64,000 nucleotides of DNA, taken from contig CAXYDO010000002.1 of assembly GCA_964276015.1 (NCBI GenBank), positions 162,151 to 226,150 of the forward strand, written 5' to 3'. The notes below the pieces were generated by a model. The model was given only the letters and a program-made list of their open reading frames with translations. It searched no databases and had not been told where the DNA came from. The stretch's first letter is position 1. Every line of letters starts with the position of its first letter. The position numbers and the translations under genes were made by a program. Positions 4,642-20,936 of the stretch are shown here, one piece after another. This DNA is from an uncultured Alphaproteobacteria bacterium (GTDB lineage: Bacteria > Pseudomonadota > Alphaproteobacteria > UBA6615).

Positions 4642-5307
4642 TCACCCCCGCTTCCACGCGCGTAATTCCACCGCCGTCACGCCGGTCTTGAGCTTTTCCA
4701 TCATCTCGGCCTCCGCCGCCTCGCGCTTGATCGAGGCTTCGATAGTTGCGGTCACCATGGCTTTGGGGATCACCACCACGCCGTCGCCGTCGCCCAGAAC
4801 CAGGTCGCCCGGGGCTATGATCACGTCACCGAAGGCCAGGGTCCCGTTGATTTTGAAGTCGCCATTCAAGTCTTTCAGGGTGCCGCGCATGCACAGGCCT
4901 CTGGCGAAGACCGGCCAGCCTTTTTGGGCCAGCGCCGCGCCGTCGCGCACGCAGCCGTCGATGACCAGGCCGCCGAGCTGGCGGGCCTTGGCCGACGTGG
5001 CCATCACCTCGCCGAAATAGCCACCTTCATAGCAGCCGCTCACATCCGCCACAATCACGTCACCGGGCTGGGCCTCGTCGATGGCGAAATGGATCGCCAG
5101 ATTATCCAGCGGCGGGCCCTTCACCGGGAAGGCAGGCCCGCAGATGGTCATGCCCGGGGCGATTGCCTTGATCGCGGACGGCAGCGAGCCGATGCGCCCG
5201 GCGGCCTCGTGCAAGGTGGAAGAATCGATCTGAGCGGCGGCGGCCAGCAATTCAGGTGTCAGTGCGTCGGCTGAATTATGCGCTTCGATATTTTGCTGTG
5301 CGGCCAT
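4642..5307 (-). CDS. RraA family protein, HMG/CHA aldolase-like (4-hydroxy-4-methyl-2-oxoglutarate aldolase/RraA fold).
   Basis: The 222-aa product from the internal ATG (MAAQQNIEAHN...) has the typical RraA/DlpA profile (GDVIVADVSG...GGEVMATSAKARQLGGLVIDGCVRD). The track ORF extends to 5373, but the ATG at 5307 gives a family-typical length. Confidence 0.8.
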   Translation of the reverse strand: MAAQQNIEAHNSADALTPELLAAAAQIDSSTLHEAAGRIGSLPSAIKAIAPGMTICGPAFPVKGPPLDNLAIHFAIDEAQPGDVIVADVSGCYEGGYFGEVMATSAKARQLGGLVIDGCVRDGAALAQKGWPVFARGLCMRGTLKDLNGDFKINGTLAFGDVIIAPGDLVLGDGDGVVVIPKAMVTATIEASIKREAAEAEMMEKLKTGVTAVELRAWKRG

Positions 5308-5426
5308 TTCGGCGCGTCCCCTTAAAATGATAACGTTGGGGCCGAGTTTAGACGCCGCACGCGTGTTCGTCATTGGGGGGAAGTGGATGTTGGGGTTTAC
5401 CGAAATTCGTCATACCCGAGAAAACC

Positions 5427-5575
5427 AACCCTCTCCGCCCTTTAGGGGGGAGAGGGTGGTGAGCGGAGCGAACCGGGTGAGGTGGGCGTCGATGGCCCGC
5501 ACGATCCATCCCGGAAGCGTCCTGCCCTCCCCCACCTCACCCCGGCCCTCTCCTCCTGGGAGGAGAGGGTGTTGG
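5427..5575. repeat. Structured intergenic repeat, copy A (~150 bp). It has nested hairpins CCCTCTCC...GGAGAGGG and a long-range GGGTGAGGTGGG / CCCACCTCACCC pairing.
   Basis: Read directly. Nearly the same element, reverse-complemented, is at 6833..6978. Copy A lies in the divergent intergenic region and ends 15 nt before the ATG at 5590. Confidence 0.75.
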
Positions 5576-5589
5576 ATCGGAGCCGTATC

Positions 5590-6819
5590 ATGACCGGTGT
5601 ACTTTCCGGCCTGCGGGTCGTTGAGGGGTCGGCTTTTGTCGCGGCGCCCACTTGCGGGATGACACTCGCCCAGCTCGGCGCCGAAGTGATCCGCTTCGAC
5701 ATGATCGGCGGCGGCATCGATTACAAGCGCTGGCCGGTGACCGCCGAAGGCAACTCGATCTACTGGGCCGGGCTGAACAAGGGTAAGCGCTCCATTGCGG
5801 TGGATTTCCGCAAACCTGAGGGACAGGAAATCCTCTCTAGCCTGATCACCCAGCCCGGCGAAGATCGGGGCATACTTCTGACGAATTTCCCTATGAAAGG
5901 CTGGCTCTCCTATGAGGCGCTGCAGGCCAAACGCGCGGATTTGATCGCGCTGAATATTCTGGGTAACCCGGATGGCTCCGTCGCGGTGGATTACACGGTC
6001 AACGCGGCGGTGGGCTTTCCCTATGTGACCGGGCCCGATGCGGAGACCCACCCGGTGAACCATGTCTTCCCGGGCTGGGACGTTTCCACTGGCTATGCGG
6101 CGGCCACAGGGCTGCTGGGGGCCGAGCGCCACCGGCGGCTAACGGGGGAAGGCCAGTATGTCTCGCTGTCTCTGGCGGACATGGCTTTCGCGACCGTGGG
6201 CAATCTTGGTTATATCGGCGAGATCCAAATCAACGGCACCGAGCGGCCCCATATCGATAATGATGTCTATGGCAGCTACGGGCGGGATTTTGCTACCAAA
6301 GACGGTCGCCAGGTGATGATCATCGCCGTGTCGGTCCCCCAGTGGAAGAAGCTGGTCGAAGCAACAGGCACCCAGGCCGAGATGGCCGCCCTGGAGGCCG
6401 AAACAGGGCTCGATTTCACCCGTGAGGAAGACCGCTACGCTGCGCGAGACGCCATCGCCGGGCCACTGGGCGGCTGGTGCGCGGCGCACACGCTGGAGGA
6501 AATCCGCACGGTGTTCGACGCCCATAATGTGTGTTGGGGACCCTACCAGACCTTCGGCCAGATGGTCGCCGAAGATCCCCGCGCCTCCAAGGCGAACCCG
6601 TTGTTTGCAGAGATCGACCAACCCGGGATCGGCACCTATCTGGCGCCGGGCTCCCCTCACAAGTTCGGTGCCTTCGAACGTGAACACCTCCGCGCGCCGG
6701 TGCTCGGCGAACACACGAATGAAATCCTGTCCGGAGAGCTGGGCCTGAGCGACGGCGAGATCGGCAAGCTCCACGATGCCGGCGTGATCGCGGGGATGGA
6801 TGCGGGGATGGGTACATGA
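5590..6819 (+). CDS. CoA-transferase family III (CaiB/BaiF-type) protein.
   Basis: The 409-aa product from the ATG at 5590 (MTGVLSGLRVVEGSAFVAAPTCGMTLAQLGAEVIRFD...) has the canonical family III N-terminus and length. The upstream in-frame extension in the track passes through the repeat element and is not coding. Confidence 0.9.
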   Translation: MTGVLSGLRVVEGSAFVAAPTCGMTLAQLGAEVIRFDMIGGGIDYKRWPVTAEGNSIYWAGLNKGKRSIAVDFRKPEGQEILSSLITQPGEDRGILLTNFPMKGWLSYEALQAKRADLIALNILGNPDGSVAVDYTVNAAVGFPYVTGPDAETHPVNHVFPGWDVSTGYAAATGLLGAERHRRLTGEGQYVSLSLADMAFATVGNLGYIGEIQINGTERPHIDNDVYGSYGRDFATKDGRQVMIIAVSVPQWKKLVEATGTQAEMAALEAETGLDFTREEDRYAARDAIAGPLGGWCAAHTLEEIRTVFDAHNVCWGPYQTFGQMVAEDPRASKANPLFAEIDQPGIGTYLAPGSPHKFGAFEREHLRAPVLGEHTNEILSGELGLSDGEIGKLHDAGVIAGMDAGMGT

Positions 6820-6832
6820 ACCTCGCTGTAAC

Positions 6833-6978
6833 CTCCCTCTCCTCCGGCGAGGAAAGGGTCGGGGTGAGGTGGGGGTGCGCACAGCCCATCCCGCTTAAGA
6901 CCGCACACGAATCCAGCACCCACCTCACCCGGTTCGTTGCGCTCAACATCTTCTCCCCCCTAAAGGGCGGAGAGGGTA
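6833..6978. repeat. Structured intergenic repeat, copy B. It is the reverse complement of copy A, with the same terminal hairpins and GGGTGAGGTGGG/CCCACCTCACCC arms.
   Basis: Reverse complement of 6833..6978 aligns to 5427..5575 across both terminal hairpins and the GGGTGAGGTGG / CCACCTCACCC arms (by eye ~70-75% over ~150 bp, most of the divergence in the central ~40 bp). It ends 13 nt before the ATG at 6991. Confidence 0.75.
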
Positions 6979-6990
6979 AAAGGTAAAACC

Positions 6991-8640
6991 ATGACACATG
7001 AAGCAATAGATTTTTGCCGAGAGGCCCTGCCCGATGCGCTGGCGTTTCGGGACGTGGCCGGGCGCACTGCAGCGGGACTCGCTGCCCCGGGCGGGCCGGT
7101 CGAACCGGTGTTGCTCGACACTCACCAGTTCGCCCTGCACGGCTATGCCTGGATGGCGACCTATGTGAACGCTCTCGAACAGCTGCTCGGCTGGGCCGAA
7201 CGGCTGGAAAGCGATGGGCGCTTCTCCGACCTGGAAAGCATGATCCTCACCTGTGGCTTCGGAGCGTATTTGAAGCAGCTCAAATACGGCATCGCCATGA
7301 GCCAGGACGAGATCGCCCGCCCGGGTGACCTGGGGCTCGACGAGAGTGACTTCTTTGGCGGTGCGGCGGCTCGCAAGCTGATGAAAGAGGGCGACAGTAT
7401 CGCCGTGCGTCAGGCCATCGCCGAAACCCTGCGGGATCGCAGCGGGGAATTCGGCGATCGCGGGCTTGATGAGACCCACGGCATGATCGCCGACCAGTTC
7501 CGGCGCTTCTCCGATGAAAAAGTCTCCCCTCATGCTCATGGCTGGCATGTGCGCGACGAACTCATTCCGCTCGAGATCATCCACGAGATGGCGGAGCTGG
7601 GCGTGTTCGGCCTCACCATCCCCGAGGAAGACGGCGGGTTGGGGCTCGGCAAGATCGCGATGTGCGTGGTCACCGAGGAGCTTTCCCGAGGCTATATCGG
7701 CGTGGGCTCGCTCGGCACCCGCTCCGAGATCGCCGCCGAGCTGATCCGGGTCAACGGCACACCGGCGCAGAAAGAAAAATACCTCGGCCCCATCGGCGCT
7801 GGCGAAATCCTGCCGACCGCGGTCTTTACCGAGCCCAATCACGGCTCGGATCTGGCCCATATCCGCGCCCGTGCCACACGGGATGGGGATGTATATCGGG
7901 TGAAGGGCAACAAGATCTGGATCACCCATGCCGCGCGCACCGACATGATGACCCTGATGGCGCGTACCGACCCGGATGAGGATGGCTATAGAGGCCTGTC
8001 CATGTTCCTGGCCGAAAAGCCCCGGGGCACAGAAGCGGACCCCTTCCCGGCTGCCGGCATGGAAGGTTCGGAAATCCGGGTTCTCGGCTATCGTGGCATG
8101 AAGGAATACGAGCTCGGCTTTGATGGCTTCGAGGTCGCCGCAGACAATCTGCTCGGCGAGCAGGAAGGCCAGGGCTTCAAACAGCTGATGGCAACTTTTG
8201 AGACCGCGCGGATCCAGACCGCCGCGCGGGCGGTTGGCGTTTCGCAAAACGCTCTCGAAGTGGCCTTCGGTTATGCCAATGACCGGGAGCAGTTCCGTCG
8301 GCCGATCGCAGACTTTGCCCGGGTTGGGGGCAAACTTGGCTGGATGGCGACGGAGACGATGATCGCTCGACAGCTGGCGTATTTCGCGGCCCGCCAGAAG
8401 GATTCAGACCAGCGATGTGACATCGAAGCGGGCATGGCCAAGCTACTCGGCGCCCGGGTCGCGTGGTCAAACGCAGATAACGGATTGCAGATCCACGGCG
8501 GCAATGGCTACGCCGAAGAGTATGATATCAGCCGAATTTTGTGTGATGCGCGCATTTTAAACATTTTCGAAGGCGCAGCAGAGATCCAGGCTGGTATCAT
8601 TGCCCGGGGCCTTCTGGGCCGACCCAATCGCGCATCGTGA
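6991..8640 (+). CDS. mcd: Acyl-CoA dehydrogenase with a ~170-aa N-terminal extension. Resembles (2S)-methylsuccinyl-CoA dehydrogenase of the ethylmalonyl-CoA pathway.
   Basis: 549 aa. The C-terminal ~380 aa is a standard ACAD fold (…TEPNHGSD…GNKIWITHA…IFEGAAEIQ). The extra N-terminal domain and overall length match Mcd-type enzymes rather than ordinary ACADs. The symbol is given with moderate confidence. Confidence 0.75.
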   Translation: MTHEAIDFCREALPDALAFRDVAGRTAAGLAAPGGPVEPVLLDTHQFALHGYAWMATYVNALEQLLGWAERLESDGRFSDLESMILTCGFGAYLKQLKYGIAMSQDEIARPGDLGLDESDFFGGAAARKLMKEGDSIAVRQAIAETLRDRSGEFGDRGLDETHGMIADQFRRFSDEKVSPHAHGWHVRDELIPLEIIHEMAELGVFGLTIPEEDGGLGLGKIAMCVVTEELSRGYIGVGSLGTRSEIAAELIRVNGTPAQKEKYLGPIGAGEILPTAVFTEPNHGSDLAHIRARATRDGDVYRVKGNKIWITHAARTDMMTLMARTDPDEDGYRGLSMFLAEKPRGTEADPFPAAGMEGSEIRVLGYRGMKEYELGFDGFEVAADNLLGEQEGQGFKQLMATFETARIQTAARAVGVSQNALEVAFGYANDREQFRRPIADFARVGGKLGWMATETMIARQLAYFAARQKDSDQRCDIEAGMAKLLGARVAWSNADNGLQIHGGNGYAEEYDISRILCDARILNIFEGAAEIQAGIIARGLLGRPNRAS

Positions 8641-8658
8641 ATCGGGATTCTTTTTTTT
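8631..8658 (+). terminator. Probable intrinsic terminator after the mcd-like gene: a short GAATC/GATTC hairpin followed by a T8 run.
   Basis: gtgaatcgggattcTTTTTTTT lies directly after the TGA at 8638-8640. A T8 run is rare in a 65% GC genome. Confidence 0.4.
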
Positions 8659-8828
8659 AAATCAAACAACTATTCAAATACGTGAATAATAAATACTACT
8701 TTTTAGAGGATTTCTTTGTGATTATTCGCGCGAACACCTGACTACATTACTACCTTCAAGGACGCACTTACCACTTTAATGTCAAGGGCTTCTGTCTTGT
8801 CACTGAATTAGTTAGACGCCATGCTGAT

Positions 8829-8850
8829 CGCGTTAACTGCGGTTAACGCG
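8829..8850. promoter_or_regulatory. Perfect 9-bp inverted repeat CGCGTTAAC-tgcg-GTTAACGCG inside a 550-bp AT-rich non-coding island (8641..9190).
   Basis: Read directly. The island has no ORF of 60 aa or more in any frame and is much lower in GC than the flanking genes. Confidence 0.4.
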
Positions 8851-9190
8851 ATCTTACCAAAGACGCATCACGAGGATCGGCAAACGTATGAACAACCGCA
8901 TCTTCGTCAGCCTGGCTCGCCAGCCGGCTAAGAACATGGCGGTTCGTTACCCGGTCATCTATGACAAGTACTGAGGAAGTAGCGATATTTTACAATGTTT
9001 TAATTGAAGGCACCAACACGATTATTGAGGCGCGATATTCCCGCAAAAAGAGTGTTCGACAAATCTCTCAAAAACCCTGAATTGCCATTCTCGCAACCGT
9101 TTAGCGCCATTTAAGCCCATCCACGCGCGGTTCGTGTTAACAATTCGCTAACCAATTGAATTAGCCAAACAAACCCTGTGAACCGCCCAT

Positions 9191-9991
9191 ATGATTCAGA
9201 ATGACGTCCTGATCATCGATTCCGTAACCAAATTTGGCGACGCCCCACAAGGCCGGGTCGCCATCGCGGCGTCCCATGGTGGCGTCTATGCCGGATATCT
9301 CGCCGCGCGGGCTGGCATCCGTGGGGTCATCCTGCACGACGCGGGAATCGGCCGAAACGAAGCCGGAATCGCCTCTCTGCCCTATCTCGACGATCTGAGG
9401 ATCGCGGGTGCGACGATCGATTATCGCAGCGCCCGGATCGGTGACGGCGTAGGAATGGCCGCAACCGGCATCATCAGCCACGTGAACGAAACCGCCCGTT
9501 TGGCCGGCGGCACGGTTGGTCAGCTGGCCATAGAAACGGCCCTTGTGATGCAAACGGCACCAGGCGGCGATGGACCGGTTCCCAAATATGACGAAGCGCG
9601 TTTTGTTCTGCTTGAGACCTCCGGAAGGCCCACGGTCATCGGGTGCGATTCAACCTCGCTGGTCCGCCCCGAGGATGTTGGCCAGATTGTGATCACCGCC
9701 TCACACGGGGACCTGCTCAAGGAAGCTCCCAGTTGGGGGAACCGACCCGATGTACACGCGGCCGTCTTCAATGACGCGGGTGCCGAAGACCCGACCCGCC
9801 TGCCCGACCTCGACACGAGATCCATAGCCGCCGCGACGGTTTCGACCGATAGCGCACGAATTGGCGATGCGCGCTCCACTTATGAAGACGGCATGATCTC
9901 CCACGTCAACGCCACAGCGCATGCCCATGGCGCAGCACAAGGCATGACGTGCATCGCCTTCGTAGAATTGATGCGTGAGATCAACGCCTAG
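9191..9991 (+). CDS. Hypothetical protein (266 aa) built from two internally duplicated ~125-aa halves.
   Basis: GC-rich, host-like coding. Both halves share ...ASHGG/ASHGD...SARIGD(G/A)...G(I/M)ISHVN(E/A)TA... I did not recognise the family. It overlaps the convergent E1-beta gene by 4 nt. Confidence 0.55.
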   Translation: MIQNDVLIIDSVTKFGDAPQGRVAIAASHGGVYAGYLAARAGIRGVILHDAGIGRNEAGIASLPYLDDLRIAGATIDYRSARIGDGVGMAATGIISHVNETARLAGGTVGQLAIETALVMQTAPGGDGPVPKYDEARFVLLETSGRPTVIGCDSTSLVRPEDVGQIVITASHGDLLKEAPSWGNRPDVHAAVFNDAGAEDPTRLPDLDTRSIAAATVSTDSARIGDARSTYEDGMISHVNATAHAHGAAQGMTCIAFVELMREINA

Positions 9992-19109: not shown

Positions 19110-20348
19110 ATGACGGATATCTACATCGTTGGCATTGGGATGACTGCGCTGGGGAAGTTCCCGGACAAATCGGTCAAGGAACTCACCAACGAGGCGGTTT
19201 CTGCCGCCCTTTCTGATGCATGTGCTGCCATGGGCGATGTTGAGGCCGCGTGGTTCTCCAATACCCGTCAGGGGATGATGGAAGGCCAGAACACCGTGCG
19301 CGGCCAATGTGCGTTGCGCGCCATGGGGTTCGAGTCCATTCCCATCGTGAATGTGGAAAACGCCTGCTGCTCATCCTCCACGGGTCTCAATCAGGCCTAT
19401 GCCTATCTCAAGGCTGGCATGGGGGGCGTGGCGCTGGTCGCAGGCAGCGAGAAAATGTTCTACCCGGAAAAACGCGATCTCATGTTTCAAGCCTTTCGCG
19501 GCGGCTGGGATGTGCACACCCAGGAAGAAACCGAGGCCCGGCTGCTCGCGCTCGGTGAAGGGTTGGAACTACCGCCCGAAGCGCTCGAAGACACCGGTGA
19601 ACACAGCGTCTTTATGGATATTTATGCCTCGCTGGCCCGCCAGCACATGAAGCATTTCGGCACCACCCAGCGCCAGATCGCGGCCGCCGCTGCCAAAAGC
19701 CATTTCCACTCGACCATGAACCCCCTGGCTCAGTACCAGAAGGATTTCAGCGTCGATGATGTGCTCAACGACCGGTTGATTTCATGGCCCCTGACCCGCG
19801 CCATGTGTGCGCCGCTCTCTGACGGAGCCGGAGCGCTTGTGCTCGCCAGTGCGGACGCACTCGATCGCTTTGACAAGTCACGGGCGATAAAGGTCATGGG
19901 CACAGCGCTTGTCAGCGGTTCGGACCGCGACCCGAACGACTTCGACAACCATCTCGGCATGGTCGCCGCCAACCGCGCCTACAATATGGCCGGGGTCTCG
20001 CCCGAAGAAGTGGATGTCGCCGAAGTCCACGACGCGTCCGCCTATGCCGAAATCGTACAGGTCGAAAATATGGGCTTCTGCGCCCGTGGCGAGGGCGGTG
20101 CGCTGGCCGAAAGCGGTGAAACCAAACTCGGCGGGCGTATTCCAGTGAACACGTCCGGTGGGCTGCTATCGAAAGGCCATCCCATTGGGGCCACAGGCGC
20201 CATGCAAATCCACGAGCTGGTCACCCAGCTGCGCGGCGAGGCCGGAAAACGCCAGGTCGAAGGTGCAAAGATCGCCGCAGCCGAAAACGGCGGCGGGTTC
20301 TTCGGGATTGAGGAGGCCGCGACCGTGGTGACGGTGCTCGGTCGCTAG
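19110..20348 (+). CDS. Thiolase-like protein (SCP-x/DitF-type non-condensing thiolase family).
   Basis: 412 aa, with MTDIYIVGIGMTALGKF...NVENACCSSSTGL...GHPIGATG... Confidence 0.9.
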   Translation: MTDIYIVGIGMTALGKFPDKSVKELTNEAVSAALSDACAAMGDVEAAWFSNTRQGMMEGQNTVRGQCALRAMGFESIPIVNVENACCSSSTGLNQAYAYLKAGMGGVALVAGSEKMFYPEKRDLMFQAFRGGWDVHTQEETEARLLALGEGLELPPEALEDTGEHSVFMDIYASLARQHMKHFGTTQRQIAAAAAKSHFHSTMNPLAQYQKDFSVDDVLNDRLISWPLTRAMCAPLSDGAGALVLASADALDRFDKSRAIKVMGTALVSGSDRDPNDFDNHLGMVAANRAYNMAGVSPEEVDVAEVHDASAYAEIVQVENMGFCARGEGGALAESGETKLGGRIPVNTSGGLLSKGHPIGATGAMQIHELVTQLRGEAGKRQVEGAKIAAAENGGGFFGIEEAATVVTVLGR

Positions 20349-20390
20349 ATTTAGCGAGCAACACTCTCGAACCACTGGTATTAGTCATCC

Positions 20391-20603
20391 ATGACCTCCG
20401 ACACCGACCGCATCGCCGATCTTGAAACCCGCCTCGTCCATCAGGAGGCGACGATCGATGAACTCTCGACCGTTGTTGCCGAGCAGGCGAACCTCGTCGA
20501 GTTGTTGCGCGAACAGGTCCGGCGGCTCTCGGGACAAATGGGCGAGCTCGCCGAGGTGGTCAGCGAGAAGACCCCGGACGACCCACCCCCGCCGCACTAC
20601 TAG
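20391..20603 (+). CDS. slyX: SlyX family protein.
   Basis: 70 aa coiled-coil protein ending ...PPPHY, the SlyX signature. Confidence 0.85.
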   Translation: MTSDTDRIADLETRLVHQEATIDELSTVVAEQANLVELLREQVRRLSGQMGELAEVVSEKTPDDPPPPHY

Positions 20604-20608
20604 GACCG

Positions 20609-20866
20609 ATGACGTCCGACGCCCCCTATTTTGTCTACGTGCTGCGCAACGCGGCCGGCACCACCTATACCGGCATCGCGCTGGATGTAGCGGCGCGGCT
20701 TGAGGCCCATAACAGCGGCAATGGCGCAAAGTTTACCTGCGGACGCGGCCCGTGGACGGTCGTCCACACCGAAGGCCCCCTGCCCCATGGCGACGCATTG
20801 CGCCGGGAAATGGCGATCAAGAAGGACCGGAAGTTCAAGGCGATTCTCAAAACAACCTCATGCTGA
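20609..20866 (+). CDS. GIY-YIG nuclease-domain protein (UPF0213-type small excinuclease-like protein).
   Basis: 85 aa, with YFVYVLRNAAGTTYTGIALDVAARLEAHNSG, a GIY...YIG motif. Confidence 0.8.
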   Translation: MTSDAPYFVYVLRNAAGTTYTGIALDVAARLEAHNSGNGAKFTCGRGPWTVVHTEGPLPHGDALRREMAIKKDRKFKAILKTTSC

Positions 20867-20888
20867 TCTTGTCGAAGTATGCGGTTGT

Positions 20889-20936
20889 AGCCCTCGTCCT
20901 TCGTCAGGCTCAGGATGAGGGCTCAGTTGTGTGTTG
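20889..20936 (+). terminator. Candidate intrinsic terminator: an 11-bp stem (AGCCCTCGTCC / GGATGAGGGCT, with one G-U pair) followed by a U-rich tail.
   Basis: Hairpin read directly. The tail CAGUUGUGUGUUG is only moderately U-rich. Confidence 0.35.

Follow-up and report, generated by a model that had tools for sequence, protein, structure and literature searches.

In the 64-kb window analyzed here (the whole stretch of DNA, from an uncultured alphaproteobacterium), a gene for a family III CoA-transferase, whose homologues are named 2-methylfumaryl-CoA isomerase in the sources, is preceded by a divergent RraA-like/aldolase gene and followed by an acyl-CoA dehydrogenase (ACAD) gene. A structured repeat occupies each of the two intergenic regions. 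These homologous 143-bp elements, copy A (5428-5570) and copy B (6835-6977), are mutually inverted, and their anatomy, their relatives and their probable nature are the subject of this report.

Anatomy of the Two Elements

A sequence-only reading of this locus had described two copies of a ~150-bp unit, aligned over their whole length in inverted orientation and ending 13-17 nt before the next start codon. The inverted homology holds. The left arms (59 nt; 5428-5486 and 6919-6977) are 92% complementary, the right arms (47 nt; 5523-5569 and 6835-6881) are 85% complementary, and whole-length alignment of the two copies gives a mean column identity of 83%. The unit itself measures 143 bp, however, and its similarity is bounded sharply by the outer CCCTCTCC and GGAGAGGG words. 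The central spacers (44-45 nt) resemble each other weakly, and in the reverse-complement sense only (shuffle p ~0.01, versus 0.45 in the same orientation). Same-orientation spacers, a possibility prompted by a common CCATCCCG word, were dropped on the strength of these alignments. The distance to the start codon was right for copy B (13 nt to 6991) but not for copy A, which ends 19 nt before 5590. Chance does not explain the match between A and B: in the window, GGGTGAGGTGGG has 4 occurrences where 0.34 are expected, and the end-hairpin pattern has 2 where 0.00 are expected. Sensitive self-BLAST of the 64-kb window found no third copy besides these two.

The nested inverted repeats noticed earlier are also present. 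Each element has CCCTCTCC…GGAGAGGG hairpins at both ends and a perfect 12-bp GGGTGAGGTGGG/CCCACCTCACCC pairing within, and its terminal inverted repeats are 13 nt long. In all four end hairpins (5429-5456, 5546-5569, 6835-6858 and 6949-6976), the 5' arm is homopyrimidine and the 3' arm homopurine, with a core of the CCCTC(N)CC / GG(N)GAGGG type. Copy B is visibly degenerate, with several stem-breaking changes: its end hairpins each have 1-2 stem mismatches, and in its long-loop unit both the end hairpin (6949-6976) and the linker (6931-6948) have degenerated, the latter with GCGCAAC replacing GCGNAGC. As had been proposed, the copies can fold as either nucleic acid, each forming three hairpins in RNA (-64 to -88 kcal/mol, z -2.7 to -4.3) or DNA (z -2.5 to -4.6 over both copies). 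Copy B folds more weakly; the three hairpins of copy A reach z = -4.0 / -4.6 in DNA. When 52 family members are folded together, RNAalifold favors a long-range pairing between the two end hairpins, which is indistinguishable from the local hairpins because the element ends are near-identical palindromes.

The key to the identity of the element is a mirror symmetry that the sequence-only reading had missed: GGGTGAGGTGGG is a mirrored copy of the purine arm in the adjacent end hairpin, in which T may replace A. The basic unit is a homopyrimidine·homopurine hairpin of the general form CCCTCTCC(G/T)CC…GG(C/A/G)GGAGAGGG, followed by the G/T-rich third segment GGGTGAGGTGGG. The loop between the purine arm and the third segment is either 3 nt long or an 18-30-nt mini-hairpin. 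Each element is a face-to-face pair of such units, and the third segments of the two facing units, being complementary, form the “central hairpin” across the variable spacer (Table 1).

Table 1. Features of the two elements and of the adjoining genes (positions in the window).
Feature	Position	Strand	Remarks
Copy A, complete face-to-face triplex-motif pair	5428..5570	.	Divergent RraA-like / CoA-transferase intergenic region; 143 bp
A left end hairpin, CCCTCTCCGCCC-TTTA-GGGGGGAGAGGG	5429..5456	+	One G·G stem mismatch
A 18-nt linker, TGGTGAGCGGAGCGAACC	5457..5474	+	d(GCGNAGC) mini-hairpin motif GCGGAGC at 5463-5469
A left third-strand segment, GGGTGAGGTGGG	5475..5486	+	Mirrors left purine arm, 11/12 triads; pairs with 5531-5542
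A variable spacer, 44 nt	5487..5530	.	
A right third-strand segment	5531..5542	-	Bottom strand GGGTGAGGTGGG, top CCCACCTCACCC; 11/11 canonical triads with right purine arm, CCG loop
A right end hairpin, CCCTCTCCTCC-TGGG/CA-GGAGGAGAGGG	5546..5569	-	With 5531-5545, a type-B-like TM unit
Copy B, inverted, partly decayed	6835..6977	.	CoA-transferase / acyl-CoA dehydrogenase intergenic region
B short-loop unit: hairpin CCCTCTCCTCC-GGCG-AGGAAAGGG, TCG loop, third strand GGGTGAGGTGGG	6835..6873	+	10/12 triads
B variable spacer, 45 nt	6874..6918	.	Weak homology to A spacer in reverse complement
B long-loop unit	6919..6976	-	Third strand 6919-6930, linker 6931-6948, end hairpin 6949-6976; 9/12 triads
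RraA-like/aldolase gene (context)	4642..5373	-	
Family III CoA-transferase (context)	5590..6819	+	Start 5590 agrees with public gene call
Acyl-CoA dehydrogenase, ACAD (context)	6991..8640	+	

The repeats also leave traces in gene calls. A 56-aa “gene” in L001 (3648-3818, equivalent to window 6816-6986) spans copy B and is the repeat mis-translated by gene callers. The longest CoA-transferase open reading frame (ORF; window 5482-6819) starts inside copy A, which is an N-terminal over-extension, and in ORFs of L031 and L085 read-through of the repeat gives neighboring genes spurious Pro/Gly/Arg-rich N-termini.

A Dispersed Family in Alphaproteobacteria

According to the sequence-only reading, confinement of the unit to these two sites, together with relatives in which the flanking genes are syntenic without it, would weaken a mobile interpretation. 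Beyond the window, it belongs to a dispersed, multi-copy family. A scan of genomes, one per species, for exact matches to the central hairpin (GGGTGAGGTGGG, 25-55 nt, CCCACCTCACCC) found it in more than 119 stretches. These come from at least ~61 assemblies, and among the matches listed a single assembly has as many as 5 loci. The hosts among these matches are Reyranella, Vineibacter, Stellaceae, Aliidongia, Zavarzinia and many uncultured soil Alphaproteobacteria. Of the 124 central hairpins listed, 107 have a CCCTCTCC…GGAGAGGG hairpin on either side, for a total element size of 114-196 bp with sharp ends. Between the end hairpin and the core, family members have either 2-5 nt, an 18-nt linker as in the window, or a side hairpin of 20-30 nt; the 107 elements divide into 66 asymmetric, 17 short-short and 24 long-long ones. 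This long form is characteristic of a group of Alphaproteobacteria from soils and estuaries. In metagenomes, the subtype of the window, with its own linker and core, occurs in 24 stretches representing at least 10 distinct loci, and the metagenome matches include solo units, back-to-back pairs and tandem arrays. A BLAST search of plasmids gave partial matches only (27-38% of the element), none of them annotated; the copies on Azospirillum and Sphingobium plasmids, which are independent variants, have the same three-hairpin layout, with altered yet matching third strands.

Tandem arrays of whole elements are found at L036 6740-7474 (three copies with a 273-bp period, in the metagenome-assembled genome OZ244931.1) and at L113 4674-4980, and a variant array with a 191-bp period lies at L135 1067-1283. 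Such arrays are local amplification, besides dispersal. Typical family members also occur on short contigs in a Solirubrobacterales bin (L016) and a Terracidiphilus bin (L050), i.e., among Actinobacteria and Acidobacteria. Mis-binned alphaproteobacterial contigs may be the simplest explanation for these, with horizontal transfer as the alternative.

Probable Triplex-Type Geometry and Signs of Folding as Single-Stranded DNA

Triads were scored by the purine-motif rules, with G opposite G:C and either A or T opposite A:T; the motif calls for a G/T(A)-rich third segment on the 3' side of the purine arm that mirrors it with one mismatch at most. In copy A, the right half-unit reaches 11/11 canonical triads and the left one 11/12; in copy B, the left one reaches 10/12 and the right one, which is decayed, 9/12. 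Shuffled third segments attain 11/11 at a frequency of 0.006. Covariation was examined in 37 perfect pyrimidine/purine hairpins from the fetched loci, a sample independent of the anchored elements. Ten of the 37 have a 9/9 mirrored third strand directly downstream, and none has one upstream. Variant hairpins come with matching third strands (GGGGGAGGG with GGGTGGGGG, GGGAGGGGG with GGGGGAGGG, and GGGGGAAGG with GGATGGGGG), and every variant third strand fits its own hairpin best. Since neither duplication nor inversion of the ordinary kind can produce mirror symmetry, these sequence comparisons, small as the sample is, point to a third strand that covaries with its hairpin by triplex rules and to a triplex-type geometric constraint.

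The 18-nt linker carries the motif GCGNAGC at 42 of 70 junctions, and its N is free (C 23, A 11, T 4, G 4). The d(GCGNAGC) sequence is an extraordinarily stable DNA mini-hairpin that resists SSB binding, and its RNA counterpart is much less stable (PMC13037366). Purine-motif triplexes, in turn, exclude RNA strands (PMC4666352). The covarying third strand and the GCGNAGC linker together argue for a constraint on folded single-stranded DNA. The linker resembles the known mini-hairpins (Hirao; PMC13037366) in its GCGNAGC motif, with N variable, G/A fixed and GCGGAGC in copy A, but those occur at single-strand replication and promoter sites, whereas here the motif lies inside a dispersed chromosomal repeat. 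In the family found here, a triplex unit is thus coupled to a DNA-specific mini-hairpin. The optional side hairpin of other family members shows compensatory changes as well (e.g., AU 20 / GC 20 / GU 10 at one pair), and it is the sole part with real covariation in the RNAalifold analysis of 52 members.

Relation to Known Repeats

BoxC and PIT elements are reportedly the subject of work by Bachellier in 1999 and by Hoyne and Maher in 2000 and 2002. To our knowledge, no function has been assigned to BoxC/triplex-motif repeats in the ~30 years since they were described, and triplex formation has never been demonstrated in vivo. The same motif goes by the names BoxC, PIT and TM_ECO, and is an intrastrand-triplex motif of Escherichia coli and other proteobacteria (Holder et al., 2015; PMC4666352). 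Its unit in E. coli reads CCCTCTCCC-loop-GGGAGAGGG-(TTA or CCG)-GGGTGAGGG. The 23 copies in strain K-12 are all intergenic, and 5 are inverted pairs, always made of two unlike unit types. A total of 3610 motifs was counted in 262 proteobacterial genomes, and the published table includes Azospirillum, Bradyrhizobium and Methylobacterium (PMC4666352). The isolated E. coli strand forms a stable triplex in vitro, and the motif is associated with local instability (PMC4666352).

The elements of the window share with BoxC/TM the core words CCCTCTCC, GGAGAGGG and GGGTGAGG, and the bottom strand of copy A has a 19-nt run, GGAGAGGGCCGGGGTGAGG, identical to E. coli TM no. 1 of the hrpB-mrcB pair. The parts also follow in the same order, with the pyrimidine arm first, then a loop, the purine arm, a short loop (CCG/TCG) and the mirrored G/T segment. 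Both are inverted pairs of two unlike halves around a variable spacer, and the layout of the hrpB-mrcB pair, hairpin–CCG–GGGTGAGGG–16 nt–CCCTCACCC–TAA–hairpin (PMC4666352), matches that of our elements. Both are also intergenic and multi-copy, occur singly or as inverted pairs, show no bias for gene class or strand, and undergo local turnover with degenerate copies. E. coli sequences gave BLAST matches of ~37 nt with 84-89% identity and E-values of 1 or more, so the link with BoxC rests on pattern, layout and the 19-nt identity, and not on BLAST statistics.

The differences concern length and host. Stems in the window are long enough for 11-12 triads, against 9 in E. coli, and have T/G where the E. 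coli stem has C as its ninth base. In one half of each element, the second loop has grown into an 18-nt GCGNAGC mini-hairpin, or in relatives into a 20-30-nt covarying hairpin. The spacer is 25-55 nt against ~16 nt, and the element 114-196 bp against ~85 bp. Finally, the hosts are Reyranella/Vineibacter/Stellaceae-like Alphaproteobacteria. This kind of repeat has been described before, and published tables already list it for Alphaproteobacteria. What is new is the long-form architecture (11-12 triads, a loop-embedded mini-hairpin or covarying side hairpin, and 114-196 bp), its frequent occurrence in a little-studied clade, and the covariation evidence.

The sequence-only reading had also considered REP/BIME/RIME-like and MITE-like elements. 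A dispersed, structured, intergenic repeat is indeed what was found, but it lacks hallmarks of both classical types. Like REP/REPIN–RAYT systems and BIMEs, our elements are short GC-rich extragenic palindromes, often inverted doublets with a spacer, that are multi-copy, lack target-site duplications and combine modules in a mosaic way. The GTAG/CGTC tag that heads REPs is absent from the ends of both copies and of the 107 family members, however, and the third, mirror-symmetric segment has no REP counterpart. The core of our elements is conserved across orders, even from alpha- to gamma-proteobacteria, whereas REPs are lineage-specific. Moreover, no flanked RAYT gene was found in the listed loci, and the relatives hold genuine GTAG-tagged REP doublets separately. 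With MITEs (Correia/NEMIS, ERIC, RUP), the shared traits are a size of ~100-200 bp, terminal inverted repeats, an intergenic position and foldability, but target-site duplications are lacking and no parent insertion sequence with matching ends was seen. The elements may also resemble the rhizobial RIME (Rhizobium-specific intergenic mosaic elements).

Synteny and Turnover at Orthologous Sites

The contigs of CoA-transferase homologues were recovered, giving nine relatives (L124-L132) with 81-92% protein identity. The gene order RraA-like, CoA-transferase and ACAD, in some cases followed by an enoyl-CoA hydratase, is conserved in all nine, and what differs is the content of the intergenic regions. 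Two relatives with 91% protein identity (L124 and L131) have the right half of copy A only, at an unchanged distance from the ATG. Other repeat families occupy the intergenic sites in L125, L126, L128, L129, L130 and L132: a GTAG-tagged REP doublet, a “CGTCATGCCCGGGC…” hairpin family and a “CCTCATGCTGAGC…CAGGCTCAGGATGAGGG” family. In L127 (82%), there is a bare 83-bp intergenic region and an extra hydratase gene. Among the relatives compared, the site of copy B holds a full element in the window lineage only.

The inverted copies around one gene had suggested a composite mobile cassette, in which they would mobilize the enclosed CoA-transferase gene, and a relative lacking that gene beside a single remaining repeat had been proposed as a check. 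That a single gene is bracketed by inverted copies is indeed what such a cassette would look like. In L124-L132, though, the gene is kept in its syntenic place, whether the repeats are absent, halved or of a different family. This synteny in relatives without the elements refutes the cassette, to which we attach next to no probability. The copies are also old and diverged, with saturated spacers, their outer ends lack duplications, and the unit repeated elsewhere is the 143-bp element, never the 1.55-kb segment.

Over shorter times, the sites are stable. Metagenome contigs of ~97% nucleotide identity (L148 and L145) have both copies in the same places. Copy A differs from these relatives at 3 of 143 positions (2.1%, background 2.7%) and copy B at 8 of 143 (5.6%, background 2.4%), and in copy B the window allele is the hairpin-breaking one. 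A site may also be filled in one lineage and empty in another. In L139 (2510-2625; also in L141, L144 and L150), a back-to-back pair, with third strands outside and hairpins inside, lies between the orthologue of window 19110-20348 and a SlyX-like gene, and its counterpart in the window (20349-20392, 44 bp) is empty. Short-term stability, later halving or replacement and degenerate copies match the categories reported for E. coli, “intergenic change / TM mutated / palindrome effect”.

The families that share these sites can be described further. GTAG-tagged REP doublets (CGGGCGGGTTTGAAACCCGCCCCTACA … TGTAGGGGCAGGTTTCAAACCTGCCCG) are found at orthologous sites in L125 (3809-4078), L126 (1-112) and L128 (4219-4330); they are classical REPIN-like doublets, distinct from the triplex-motif family. 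A third hairpin family (CGTCATGCCCGGGCTTGACCCGGGCATCC … GGATCAAGTCCGCGCATGACG) occurs at L124 2683-3000 and 4240-4500 and at L128 2525-3000 and 4219-4527, and an apparent short remnant of it (ttcgtcatacccg) lies at window ~5409-5421, directly to the left of copy A. A second dispersed repeat family of the window (CCTCATGCTGAtCTTGTCGAAGTATGcGG … CCCTCGTCCTTCGTCAGGCTCAGGATGAGGG) is at 20851-20927, just after a small GIY-YIG-like ORF (20609-20866). It fills CoA-transferase intergenic sites in L125, L126, L129, L131 and L132, and occurs twice in L154; a tRNA at window 20851-20927 was considered and rejected, the region being this other repeat family. In these Alphaproteobacteria, the same intergenic sites are thus serially occupied by different repeat families.

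Gene Context and Possible Roles in RNA

In the fetched loci, where gene calls are heuristic, elements lie between tandem, convergent and divergent genes in 64, 16 and 14 cases, against 261, 86 and 83 for element-free gene pairs of the same loci. The context of the family is therefore that of the background, with 68% of elements between co-directional genes. The median distance after a stop codon is 31 nt. Asymmetric elements show a weak trend in orientation relative to transcription (26:13, p = 0.053), which is not significant. The neighbors are ordinary genes of transport and metabolism, with recurrent families such as ABC transporters, luciferase-like monooxygenases/oxidoreductases and thiamine pyrophosphate enzymes; clustering of 746 neighboring ORFs from the 119 listed loci of 8 kb revealed no recurrent transposase-like neighbor. 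The flanks of the elements have a consensus that is A/T-rich and then TCT. Direct repeats of 2-8 nt, sought at boundary offsets of 0-3 nt around 106 elements as target-site duplications, were not more frequent than in shuffled pairings.

An attenuator, terminator or structured 5' leader had been proposed, and more generally the elements could be gene-specific cis-regulators (5' leader, attenuator, riboswitch-like or operator) of the CoA-transferase and ACAD genes. Their position invites this idea, as both copies end 13-19 nt upstream of a start codon, and in L124 and L131 the right half of copy A is kept along with its distance from the ATG. Relative to the gene downstream, however, copy A and copy B have opposite orientations, and the element stands beside unrelated genes at more than 100 sites. 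A fixed orientation and position with the regulated gene is not kept in the relatives, where orthologous CoA-transferase loci are without elements (L125, L126, L127, L128, L129, L130 and L132), and copy B is decaying. Rfam gave no family for the whole window at gathering thresholds, and at permissive E-values region 5300-7100 yielded only sub-threshold, microRNA-like hairpin noise. A promoter and terminator scan of 5250-7100 found no consensus and no T-tract terminator. Dedicated regulation of these genes is thus largely refuted, and we consider it very improbable.

A more general RNA role would be that of REP-like stem-loops, which shield upstream mRNA from 3' exonucleases or set the stability and processing of the CoA-transferase–ACAD transcript without being gene-specific. 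The RNA folds predicted above have a very high stability, the side hairpin covaries, and the short distance after stop codons, the share of elements between co-directional genes and the weak 26:13 trend would all suit such a role. That share is nevertheless the background one, and 14 elements, copy A among them, lie between divergent genes. The mirrored third strand and the GCGNAGC motif have no rationale in RNA, orthologous operons manage without the element, and the E. coli homologue has no promoter or terminator activity and leaves RNA polymerase unaffected (PMC4666352). We regard an accessory role in RNA as improbable, though less so than dedicated regulation. For the window, a false lead is removed: the CoA-transferase gene is neither on a cassette nor under a special riboregulator.

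A Model for the Elements

Taken together, the two elements are probably inverted pairs of BoxC/PIT/TM-type intrastrand-triplex units, in a long form, which act as DNA and have no dedicated role for the CoA-transferase. Within this reading, the BoxC-like identity and the absence of a cassette and of a dedicated leader are well supported. The sequence comparisons show the anatomy, the membership in the family, agreement with the triplex rule including covariation, a gene context free of bias and turnover at orthologous sites; folding in vivo and the origin of new copies are inferred. The conserved parts of the elements would be those that let single-stranded DNA fold into hairpin, triplex and mini-hairpin. 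The element would act as DNA rather than RNA. When the region becomes single-stranded or negatively supercoiled, during replication, transcription or repair, the end hairpins would fold, and the G/T segment could then occupy the hairpin major groove as a purine-motif triplex. The whole pair could also extrude as a cruciform. Such folded structures would hinder polymerases and provoke deletions or replacements, making these intergenic regions unusually changeable, and local intergenic instability would be the main consequence of the elements. The flanking of the CoA-transferase gene would then be coincidental, the result of two separate occupancies of neighboring intergenic regions.

Several observations weigh against this reading. 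The published TM_ECO pattern, CCCTCNCCC-N3-6-GGGNGAGGG-N3-GGGNGAGGG, has 0 matches on either strand of the window, because the ninth stem position is T/G. Loops were defined as 1-6 nt for ITxF and, for the second loop of TM_ECO, as 3 nt, TTA or CCG (PMC4666352); the second loop is short in A right (CCG) and B left (TCG), but its 18 nt in A left and B right fall outside the 1-6-nt definition. With the strict pattern unmatched, the stems longer and one second loop long, the elements are filed as a long-form variant, and not as TM_ECO itself. The E. coli homologue gave no triplex signal in duplex DNA, nor by dimethyl sulfate footprinting in vivo (PMC4666352). Only 12 units with a third strand make up the independent covariation sample, which is small. 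The genome scan fixed both third-strand arms, so that arm conservation among its loci is by construction. Conservation is far higher in the arms than in the spacers, which are free to vary, and this could also reflect a host function. Lastly, raised divergence is seen in copy B only, a single case, and the weak trend in orientation also leans the other way.

How new copies arise is a separate matter. The route favored here would be a hairpin-dependent copying of single-stranded DNA, without target duplication. The chief rival concerning propagation is a REPIN/MITE-like, non-autonomous mobile element, in which the inverted pair of hairpin units would transpose as one unit, with a single-copy HUH/Y1 enzyme (RAYT- or IS200/IS605-like) acting in trans to copy it. 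This enzyme would recognize the folded ends of the element on single-stranded DNA, with the triplex-like symmetry as part of the recognition structure. As it concerns how copies spread, this is compatible with a BoxC identity. The dispersed, multi-copy distribution, sharp conserved ends and variable spacer recall REP doublets, yet the elements lack the GTAG/CGTC tag and the true GTAG-tagged doublets form a separate family in the relatives. The lack of target-site duplications is what HUH enzymes would leave, but no recurrent transposase-like gene adjoins the elements in the 119 listed loci. Solo, face-to-face, back-to-back and tandem units, motifs specific to single-stranded DNA, and a site filled in L139 but empty at window 20349-20392 all speak for copying of this kind; copies of the same genome have saturated spacers, however, with recent transposition not evident, both copies are fixed in place at ~97% identity, and no link to mobile elements was found in the E. 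coli study (PMC4666352). We consider such an enzyme-driven origin possible, but unlikely on balance.

It is also conceivable, if slightly more doubtful, that the long-form elements are a distinct, uncatalogued composite family, selected for its folded single-stranded DNA (hairpin, triplex and mini-hairpin) in Reyranella/Vineibacter/Stellaceae-like hosts. The structure would then be either the recognition form of a structure-specific copying enzyme or a host signal in single-stranded DNA, as a priming or SSB-exclusion site. If so, the covariation would for the first time give evidence from comparative genomics for the importance of intrastrand triplexes in vivo. The family is large and diverse, and its natural sequence variants can be used for direct biophysical and genetic tests.

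An AT-Rich Region Downstream of the ACAD Gene

After the ACAD stop codon, window 8641-9190 is a strikingly AT-rich non-coding stretch in a window of 59% GC. It has counterparts in L124 (6148-6390), L125 (5726-5968), L126 (3091-3333) and L128 (6166-6407), and several blocks are kept in all relatives: GATTC-n6-GAATC, CTACTTTTTAGAG, CAAGGGCTTCTGyCTTGTCACTGAA and GGTTAAC…GTTAAC palindromes. There is no Rfam match, and the stretch is probably a regulator-binding or promoter region of the next operon. It measures 550 bp in the window versus ~243 bp in the relatives; L145, which is 97% identical, is without ~294 bp present at window 8838-9131, and in the aligned part 8.6% of positions differ from it, against a background of ~2.4%. 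Next comes a 266-aa ORF (9191-9991) without a Pfam match but with a coding-like GC pattern, at a place where the relatives have an enoyl-CoA hydratase gene.

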